A DNA stretch of 37,387 nucleotides from a virus (Duplodnaviria; Heunggongvirae; Uroviricota; Caudoviricetes), in the IMG/VR virus record IMGVR_UViG_2563366935_000005; one strand, 5' to 3'. Within the stretch, counting starts at the first letter, position 1. Each line of letters opens with the position of its first letter. Below, one piece after another: positions 10,052 to 11,086 of the stretch. Under the pieces are notes generated by a model, which had not been told where the DNA came from, ran no database searches, and worked only from the letters and a program-made list of their open reading frames with translations. Position numbers and translations under genes: made by a program.

Positions 10052-11086
10052 ATGGATAAAAGATATCAGGTTTTTGTTAGTTCAACTTTTGCTGATCTTG
10101 AAGAAGAAAGACAGGAAGTAATGCAAGCACTGCTGGAGCTTGATTGTATGCCAGCAGGAATGGAATTATTTCCAGCAACAAATAGTGATCAGTGGAGTTT
10201 AATAAAAAAAATAATTGACGATAGTGATTATTATATTGTTATCTTGGCAGGGCGTTATGGTTCAATTGGTCCTGATGGAATAAGCTATACAGAAATGGAG
10301 TATCGTTATGCTTTGGAAACTGGTAAGCCAGTTATAGGTTTTATTCATAAAGATAAAAGTAACCTCCCCGCAAAACGTTGTGAGTCAAACCCTGAAGGCG
10401 TAGAAAAACTAAAGGCTTTCGAAGAGCTAGTTAAAACAAAATTATGTCGTTTTTGGGAGTCTCCTGCAGAATTAGGTAGCCAGGTTAGCAGAAGTTTGAT
10501 TAGACTAATTAAAGAATGTCCTGCAATTGGGTGGGTTAAAGGAAATTTAGTAACTAATGATGGTGATGCAAAGGAAATATTGAAATTAAAAAGGCGAATT
10601 GAGGAGCTTGAAAGTCAACTTGTATCAAGTATGACTGAAGCGCCTGCAGGTGCAGAAAAACTATCTCAAGGAGATGAGCTTTTTGAATTGGATTATGAAT
10701 TCTGTGTGTCGCCTACAGAATGGAGACATAATGGTGAAGAATATACCGATAAGGTCAAATTAAGCTGGAACGATATTTTTTCATATGTTTCGCCTTTGAT
10801 GATAGATGAGATAGTGGATGATAAGCTATATAGTGCTTTAAATAACTGTGTGCGAAATGCAGTTCAAGATATCATCTATGAGGATTTTAAAGATATGAAT
10901 TTATTATCTTTAAAAGTATCTAATTCTGATTTTCAAACAATAAAAGTGCAGTTTAGGGCGCTTGGGTTAATTATTAAAAGTGAAAAGAGTAGAAGTGTTA
11001 AAGATAAAGGTACTTATTGGACTTTAACACCGTATGGCGAAAATTTAATGACAACATTGAGAGCGATTAAAAAAACTTTGGTATAG
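10052..11086 (+). CDS. DUF4062-like N-terminal domain protein (344 aa) with an uncharacterised C-terminal region containing a coiled-coil-like segment; candidate single-gene defence protein
   Basis: N-terminus [36 protein letters not shown]...ILAGRYGS matches the DUF4062 pattern as I recall it; AT-rich; own promoter and terminator; not part of the P2 core gene set. Confidence 0.6.
   Translation: [344 protein letters not shown]

Follow-up and report, generated by a model that had tools for sequence, protein, structure and literature searches.

A DUF4062 gene beside cos in an Escherichia coli P2-like prophage probably encodes a Swarozyc-family abortive-infection defence

The stretch of DNA analysed here, which we call the window, is 37,387 nucleotides long (IMG/VR record IMGVR_UViG_2563366935_000005) and is an Escherichia coli 186/P2-like prophage integrated beside ybjL-ybjM-grxA. 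Along it lie the integrase (1-1131), CI/CII, Dam, gpA (4799-7213), the late genes and ogr, in that order. Between gpA and the portal gene Q, adjoining cos, there is a gene whose product begins with a DUF4062 domain. An original prediction, made by a model from the letters alone, had singled it out as an autonomously expressed single-gene moron and most plausibly a defence protein. The open reading frame (ORF), the N-terminal sequence quoted for it and a coiled-coil-like segment (residues 174-190) are all present as described, and the suggestion of defence has gained weight, since by alignment the protein is homologous over its full length to Swarozyc, an anti-phage NADase demonstrated by experiment. 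We consider it probable that the prophage carries the gene as a moron and that its product, of the Swarozyc family, acts alone in abortive-infection defence. The features of the locus, in window coordinates, are as follows.

10052-11086, + strand: Swarozyc-family gene, an ORF of 344 amino acids plus stop
9984-11139, + strand: exchangeable cassette of 1,156 bp containing the gene with its own putative promoter and terminator, delimited by collinearity with strains D9 and F1005
9986-10014, + strand: putative sigma-70-type promoter CTGACA-17-TATAAT, an 11/12 match to consensus
11089-11122, no strand assigned: hairpin with a perfect 15-bp stem, identified by folding, between the convergent stops of the Swarozyc-like gene and the portal gene Q
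11123-12160, - strand: resident portal gene, gpQ-like, PF04860 (Pfam E=8.8e-18), of which only the last 5 codons belong to the cassette
9833-9983 (about 150 bp), no strand assigned: conserved cos block forming the left border of the cassette, recognised by similarity to P2-like phages
9957-9975, no strand assigned: 19-nt cohesive end GGCGTGGCGGGGATACGAG, which aligns to P2 cosL/cosR

Swarozyc is a single-gene abortive-infection system in which the DUF4062 domain is a TIR-like NADase, and its founding member is KpSwz from Klebsiella pneumoniae (Osinski et al., bioRxiv 10.64898/2026.05.01.722283, May 2026). Its layout is a TIR-like domain, a helical stalk and a C-terminal auxiliary domain (AUX) with a helix-turn-helix/winged-helix fold. 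When phage Bas14 infects, the AUX domains of KpSwz bind around its dodecameric portal, with the hairpin residues W238 and Y239 inserted into the portal, and the enzyme hydrolyses NAD+, yielding ADP-ribose and nicotinamide. It needs both E97 and AUX, and its dimer uses interface AB instead of AE. Abortive-infection defence was demonstrated both for KpSwz and for a homologue ascribed to E. coli/Enterobacteriaceae, and the five Swarozyc proteins tested, one of them from E. coli, had been picked for alike C-terminal auxiliary domains (all from bioRxiv 10.64898/2026.05.01.722283).

The homology extends over all three parts of the protein. The complete Pfam DUF4062 profile (PF13271, positions 1-82 of 82) matches residues 6-87 with E=1.5e-29, bearing out the domain that had been proposed from its N-terminal pattern. 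A search of the PDB sequences gave one strong match (E=6.6e-69), to the KpSwz chains 10wc/11cq/11cv, which are named "KpSwz DUF4062 / KpSwz TIR", and in the alignment residues 1-341 of the window protein pair with chain residues 2-324. Identity is 43% overall, rising to 51% in the core (1-160) and 63% in the Pfam stretch (6-87), with 33% in the stalk, 34% in AUX and 24% in the hairpin. The C-terminal part had been regarded as uncharacterised. The AUX region matches no Pfam family, yet searched alone it finds KpSwz chain 204-324 at E=1.2e-8, and by this match it is homologous to a structurally characterised portal-binding sensor. Two coiled-coil matches, Knl1_RWD_C and Pox_A_type_inc, were rejected as below threshold and compositional. 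The protein can be divided as follows.

10052-10531, + strand: predicted TIR-like/DUF4062 NADase core, residues 1-160 (Pfam match to residues 6-87 at 10067-10312)
10298-10300, + strand: codon of E83, by alignment the equivalent of catalytic KpSwz E97 and Eva01 E87
10559-10636, + strand: coiled-coil-like helical stalk, residues 170-195, a helix in the AlphaFold2 (AF2) model and aligned to the KpSwz stalk
10652-11083, + strand: AUX sensor domain by homology, residues 201-344, from the AUX-only match to KpSwz
10679-10765, + strand: AUX β-hairpin, residues 210-238, from the AF2 model
10721-10723, + strand: codon of W224 at the hairpin tip, aligned with the KpSwz anchor W238

We calculated an AF2 model from a 25-sequence alignment (pLDDT 73, pTM 0.45). 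From the N-terminus it contains a five-stranded β/α core (6-155), a long helix (170-195) that includes the coiled-coil-like segment, a β-hairpin with strands 210-220 and 229-238 and W224 at its tip, a helical domain, and a C-terminus of low confidence (309-344). This is the order of elements described for KpSwz, and the alignment, the AUX-only search and the model all place a helical stalk ahead of a KpSwz-like AUX. The core is predicted to adopt a TIR/NDT-like flavodoxin-type fold of about 155 residues, and is thus larger than the domain of about 80 residues first envisaged. The question whether it is TIR-like or belongs with SLOG has a divided answer. Homology to KpSwz makes it TIR-like, whereas residues 1-167 match no Pfam TIR or SLOG family even at E<=10, giving DUF4062 only. 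It thereby differs from canonical TIR NADases (SARM1, plant TIR-NLRs, ThsB, TIR-APAZ/SPARTA), with which we grouped the NDT-family N-glycosidases (MilB, BcmB, DNPH1) for comparison.

The residues on which the known enzymes depend are conserved. E83, in the sequence TEMEY, aligns with the alanine at chain position 84 of the KpSwz E97A mutant structure; the chain numbering is offset by +13, which we checked on R18, D71 and W176. The KpSwz orthologue of E. coli LF82 has TEKEF where the mutant chain has TEKAF, and this confirms the assignment of E83 to E97. E83 is invariant in 25 sequences and lies at the N-terminus of the AF2-predicted helix alphaC. By alignment, then, E83 is the catalytic-equivalent glutamate, and not the glutamate of GMELF (E38) that had been put forward for mutation. 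E38 is also invariant. The model puts it after strand βB (33-35) and before helix αB (45-57), within the predicted BB loop, and its role may be regulatory because the BB loop of KpSwz is an autoinhibitory element that occludes the active site. Other validated residues are kept as well. F8 corresponds to Eva01 F11, W161 to Eva01 W162 and to the junction tryptophan W176 of KpSwz, and W224 to KpSwz W238; F8, E83-Y84, Q47-W48 and W161 are all invariant in the family alignment.

Eva01 is the Evangelion protein of the Staphylococcus aureus plasmid pMW2 (Ibarra-Chavez et al., bioRxiv 10.64898/2026.06.25.731849). It too is a one-gene system whose AUX is essential, and its activity goes with loss of NAD+ and with abortive infection; phage escapers map to RecA/Sak/UvsX-like recombination genes, and its authors set Swarozyc in a separate lineage (bioRxiv 10.64898/2026.06.25.731849). 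The window protein has the DUF4062 core motifs of Eva01 (F11, E87-Y88, Q-W and W162). The similarity does not reach an Eva01-type AUX, as tblastn matches on 201 Staphylococcus plasmids cover residues 4-181 and stop at about residue 181. The AUX of Eva01 is unrelated, and the window protein therefore belongs in the Swarozyc lineage and not in that of Eva01.

Taken over its whole length, the protein is by sequence a full-length Swarozyc-family member of a distinct sub-lineage, and so of a kind of system that already has a description, a solved structure and a name. Its architecture is the three-part one of KpSwz throughout, and both are single genes on mobile elements. They differ in length (344 amino acids against 326 in the solved chain) and in setting, the window gene lying in a P2-like prophage beside a resident portal gene and a close KpSwz orthologue in E. 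coli LF82 lying on an integrative conjugative element. A further difference is a basic nine-residue insertion, SEKSRSVKD (about residues 310-318; window 10979-11005), which is nearly invariant in the sub-lineage, missing from KpSwz, and falls in a stretch of the AF2 model with pLDDT below 50. The LF82 gene (NC_011993, locus L019, 4000-4980), found also in NRG857C, is the second Swarozyc-type gene of E. coli. Its product, which matches the PDB chain of KpSwz at E=1e-175, is a near-orthologue of that protein and shares only 39% identity with the one from the window. The E. coli protein of the Swarozyc paper, UPI0002A39D72, may be the window protein; with two Swarozyc-type lineages in E. coli, sharing a species name is no guide.

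Relatives are abundant. More than 6,900 homologues were found, and the best 120 of them are full-length, about 60% identical and spread across Proteobacteria. The identical protein occurs on 609 contigs and is labelled multispecies Enterobacteriaceae. About 100 positions are invariant in the family alignment, and the starting residues MDKRYQ are kept in 24/24 aligned homologues. Across 125 sequences, column entropy reaches its minimum in the core and in residues 291-330, and its maximum in 221-240 (the hairpin tip and second strand) and 251-290. Judged by the order of elements, the variable residues 221-240 would correspond to the KpSwz hairpin anchor and 251-290 to its α-loop-β portal-recognition module. 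Divergent homologues lie in the same slot of a Klebsiella P2-like prophage, in the head module of a Pseudomonas Mu-like prophage, in a Burkholderia resolvase/integrase island and in an Enterobacter chromosomal islet. No neighbour is conserved across the five different contexts examined, and this supports the autonomy of the single gene. Among phage protein families the sole PHROGs match is phrog_15411, a full-length family of unknown function.

The surrounding DNA shows that the gene moves as a unit. We anchored cos with the P2 reference record, both ends of which are the 19-nt cohesive end, and its alignment to 9957-9975 secures the cos site that had been suspected upstream of the gene. The cos block is 89-94% identical in Fels-2, SopEPhi and P2-like phages of Yersinia and Klebsiella, and was found in 1,272 of 5,426 complete E. 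coli genomes. The cassette begins 9 bp past cos. Its GC content is 0.349 against 0.505 for the whole window and 0.52-0.63 for the phage core, in keeping with the description of the gene as AT-rich. The prophage of D9 follows the window collinearly through 7001-9983 and again through 11140-12400, with a PIN_12 gene in between, so that the cargo has been swapped as a unit. That of F1005 has 9833-12400 in common with the window, and its cargo to the left of the cos block is different. Since D9 swaps the right cargo only and F1005 differs to the left of the cos block, the region consists of two slots, flanking that block, whose contents are exchanged independently. In P2 the distance from cos to the Q stop is 167 bp including the tQ terminator, more than the figure of about 100 bp given originally.

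The region between gpA and gpQ next to cos is a known defence hotspot of P2-like prophages (Rousset et al. 2022, PMC9122126), and the Swarozyc-like gene lies within it. The tin/old locus of P2 is likewise AT-rich, exchangeable and independently transcribed cargo between gpA and gpQ; tin and old sit on the opposite side of cos, whereas the Swarozyc-like gene occupies the cos-to-Q slot. The content of this right slot varies among the nine prophages sampled (loci L001, L002 and L006-L012), and its cargo is always oriented from cos to Q. In seven further prophages the slot holds an AIPR protein, three hypothetical proteins, an ABC-three-component system, DprA, a P-loop NTPase, a 672-bp hypothetical gene and a DUF262 protein. 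The DUF4062 gene is a rare occupant: among the 5,426 E. coli genomes 7 have it, with 99.7% nucleotide identity in every case. DUF4062 is absent from the main text of Rousset et al. 2022 (PMC9122126) and from that of a 2026 P2/P4 survey. A Klebsiella P2-like prophage has a 70%-identical allele in the same slot, with unrelated promoter and terminator sequences.

In the window the left slot is filled by a pair of genes corresponding to the PADLOC candidate system PDC-M18 (8005-9742), with a PDC-M18A match at 8005-9204 (+; E=1e-30) and a PDC-M18B match at 9206-9742 (+; E=3e-18), and the right slot by the Swarozyc-like cassette. The PDC-M18B-like protein seems to be membrane-embedded, and D9 has the same M18 pair beside its different right-slot gene. 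Elsewhere, in the late/tail region, an ORF of 442 amino acids at 19920-21248 (-), with a GC content of about 0.34 and without any Pfam domain, matches the PADLOC candidate PDC-S59 at E=2e-197 and is probably a third defence cargo of the prophage. A defensive role for the Swarozyc-like gene is favoured because the same prophage also holds these PDC-M18 and PDC-S59 candidates, and because the slot holds varied cargo elsewhere.

The cassette carries its own candidate signals. The near-consensus promoter that had been pointed out exists as a pattern, with 11 of 12 consensus positions; it lies inside the cassette and outside the conserved cos block, and the start codon is 38 bp downstream. In the 37-kb window, both strands included, there are two sigma-70 matches of at least 11/12, and of sequences obtained by dinucleotide shuffling of the local 1.8 kb, 7.8% contain such a match. 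The other, TTAACA-17-TATAAT at 1453-1481 (+), lies in the integrase/immunity region and is presumably an early or immunity promoter of the phage. At the far end of the gene, the hairpin of 11089-11122 folds at -24 kcal/mol on either strand and occupies the position equivalent to the P2 tQ terminator. It likely serves as terminator for both the Swarozyc-like gene and Q. Of the strong bidirectional terminator claimed for this position the hairpin itself stands, and bidirectionality is plausible: the + strand has a clear U-tract and the - strand a weaker one (TTTGTTAT), which needs melting of the A-U stem end. The right recombination junction of the cassette falls inside the last five codons of Q (window 11126-11139), and exchange of the cassette therefore also swaps the C-terminal tail of Q and its terminator; the portal is 341 amino acids long in D9 and 345 in the window prophage. 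The cassette, with its own putative promoter and terminator, thus has the makings of an autonomous single-gene moron as had been proposed: it is swapped as a unit in D9 and its neighbours differ in every context examined.

We infer that the gene is expressed, that its product is an NADase, that portal is the trigger for this allele and that the outcome is abortive infection. In the lysogen the gene would be transcribed constitutively from its own sigma-70 promoter, and the protein would rest in an autoinhibited dimeric or oligomeric state in which, as in KpSwz, the BB loop (residues 36-44, GMELFPATN) blocks the active site. On production of portal by an infecting phage, the AUX domains would bind around the portal ring through the tryptophan-tipped β-hairpin (W224) and the second variable module. 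The stalks would then realign, permitting E83-dependent hydrolysis of NAD+. Depletion of NAD+ would halt the infected cell, the infection would abort and the phage would not spread.

A number of observations weigh against this scheme. Its promoter is proposed from a consensus match, and lacks phylogenetic support because each cassette brings its own flanks; the 70%-identical Klebsiella allele does not share the sequence. PADLOC v2.0.0 and NCBIfam contain no matching model; as these libraries are old we do not count this as evidence against defence, and the LF82 orthologue of KpSwz is likewise without a PADLOC match. The AF2 model is of moderate quality, with pLDDT below 50 for residues 309-344. 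The hairpin anchors are partly changed, W224 aligning with W238 but Y239 of KpSwz being replaced by R225. Lastly, the Swarozyc-like gene and the prophage's own portal gene are 37 bp apart, and a sensor of portals placed there would require some self-tolerance.

The main rival explanation is that the protein is the same DUF4062 NADase abortive-infection effector responding to a different trigger, such as another virion protein, or replication or recombination intermediates of the sort proposed for Eva01. With 34% identity to KpSwz in AUX, 24% in the hairpin and R225 in place of Y239, the trigger could indeed differ, and the recognition segments are the most variable of the family. Eva01 is linked to recombination proteins and not to portals, showing that triggers vary within the superfamily, a fact that also tells against portal sensing here. 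Moreover, the prophage must express its own portal, and tolerance would be simpler if portals were not the signal. Yet the AUX is homologous to the portal-binding AUX of KpSwz (E=1.2e-8) and keeps the anchor tryptophan, it has nothing in common with the AUX of Eva01 (the Staphylococcus plasmid matches being confined to residues 4-181), and the proteins tested in the Swarozyc paper, including the one from E. coli, were picked for similar auxiliary domains. We therefore regard a different trigger as possible but unlikely.

Two further explanations are much less credible. The gene might serve the life cycle of the prophage, either as a nucleotide-modifying enzyme of the NDT/N-glycosidase type or as an accessory factor for the portal or for packaging, next to Q; its dispensability, its wide non-phage distribution and its strong conservation make this very improbable. 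On the same grounds we give hardly any credence to inactive or decaying cargo, an unexpressed remnant, for which a weak Shine-Dalgarno sequence might speak, but which is at odds with an intact ORF, an identical protein on 609 contigs across Enterobacteriaceae, an 11/12 promoter match, and about 60% full-length identity across Proteobacteria with about 100 invariant positions.

A Swarozyc-type defence triggered by the portal raises the question of how a prophage tolerates a portal-activated suicide NADase beside its own portal gene. The resident portal and that of Bas14 have no detectable similarity (E=0.87) and belong to different Pfam families (PF04860 and PF13264). Such dissimilarity is compatible with self-tolerance, without being proof of it. 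Full-length relatives are encoded on 189 viral contigs of IMG/VR, and a recognisable portal lies within 2.7 kb of the gene in 19 of 50 non-redundant loci (IMG/VR L020-L099; for example L040 4001-6665, L041 1239-4999, L092 385-3174 and L016 1035-6059). These portals belong to four Pfam families, with the following distances to the Swarozyc-like gene.

PF04860, P2-like backbone: 43-80 bp
PF05136, lambda-like backbone: 83 and 337 bp
PF05133, SPP1-like backbone: 0.76-2.6 kb
PF06074, Mu-like backbone: 2.2-2.4 kb

Among the loci on contigs of 20 kb or more, 16 of 38 have such a portal nearby, against 8.6 expected for uniform placement, with a nominal p of 0.006 for loci that are not independent, coming from four backbones. 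We treat this proximity as a lead and not as a result, and it may reflect a common site of moron insertion where the packaging and head modules adjoin. The idea that portal-sensing Swarozyc genes are preferentially carried beside a resident portal, so that linkage pairs the sensor with a portal allele it does not recognise, is one we hold to be doubtful. If it were true, it would be a built-in solution to the problem of self and non-self, by which a prophage would wield a portal-triggered suicide enzyme against competitors and spare its own lytic cycle. In that case both the hypervariable hairpin (221-240) and the module at 251-290 would be tuned against the linked portal.

The sub-lineage of Swarozyc recognised here is widespread in Proteobacteria, has 43% identity to the characterised protein and is common phage cargo. 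A mechanism, at the strength set out above, can now be assigned to a gene that PGAP labels "DUF4062 domain-containing protein" and that current defence finders miss.

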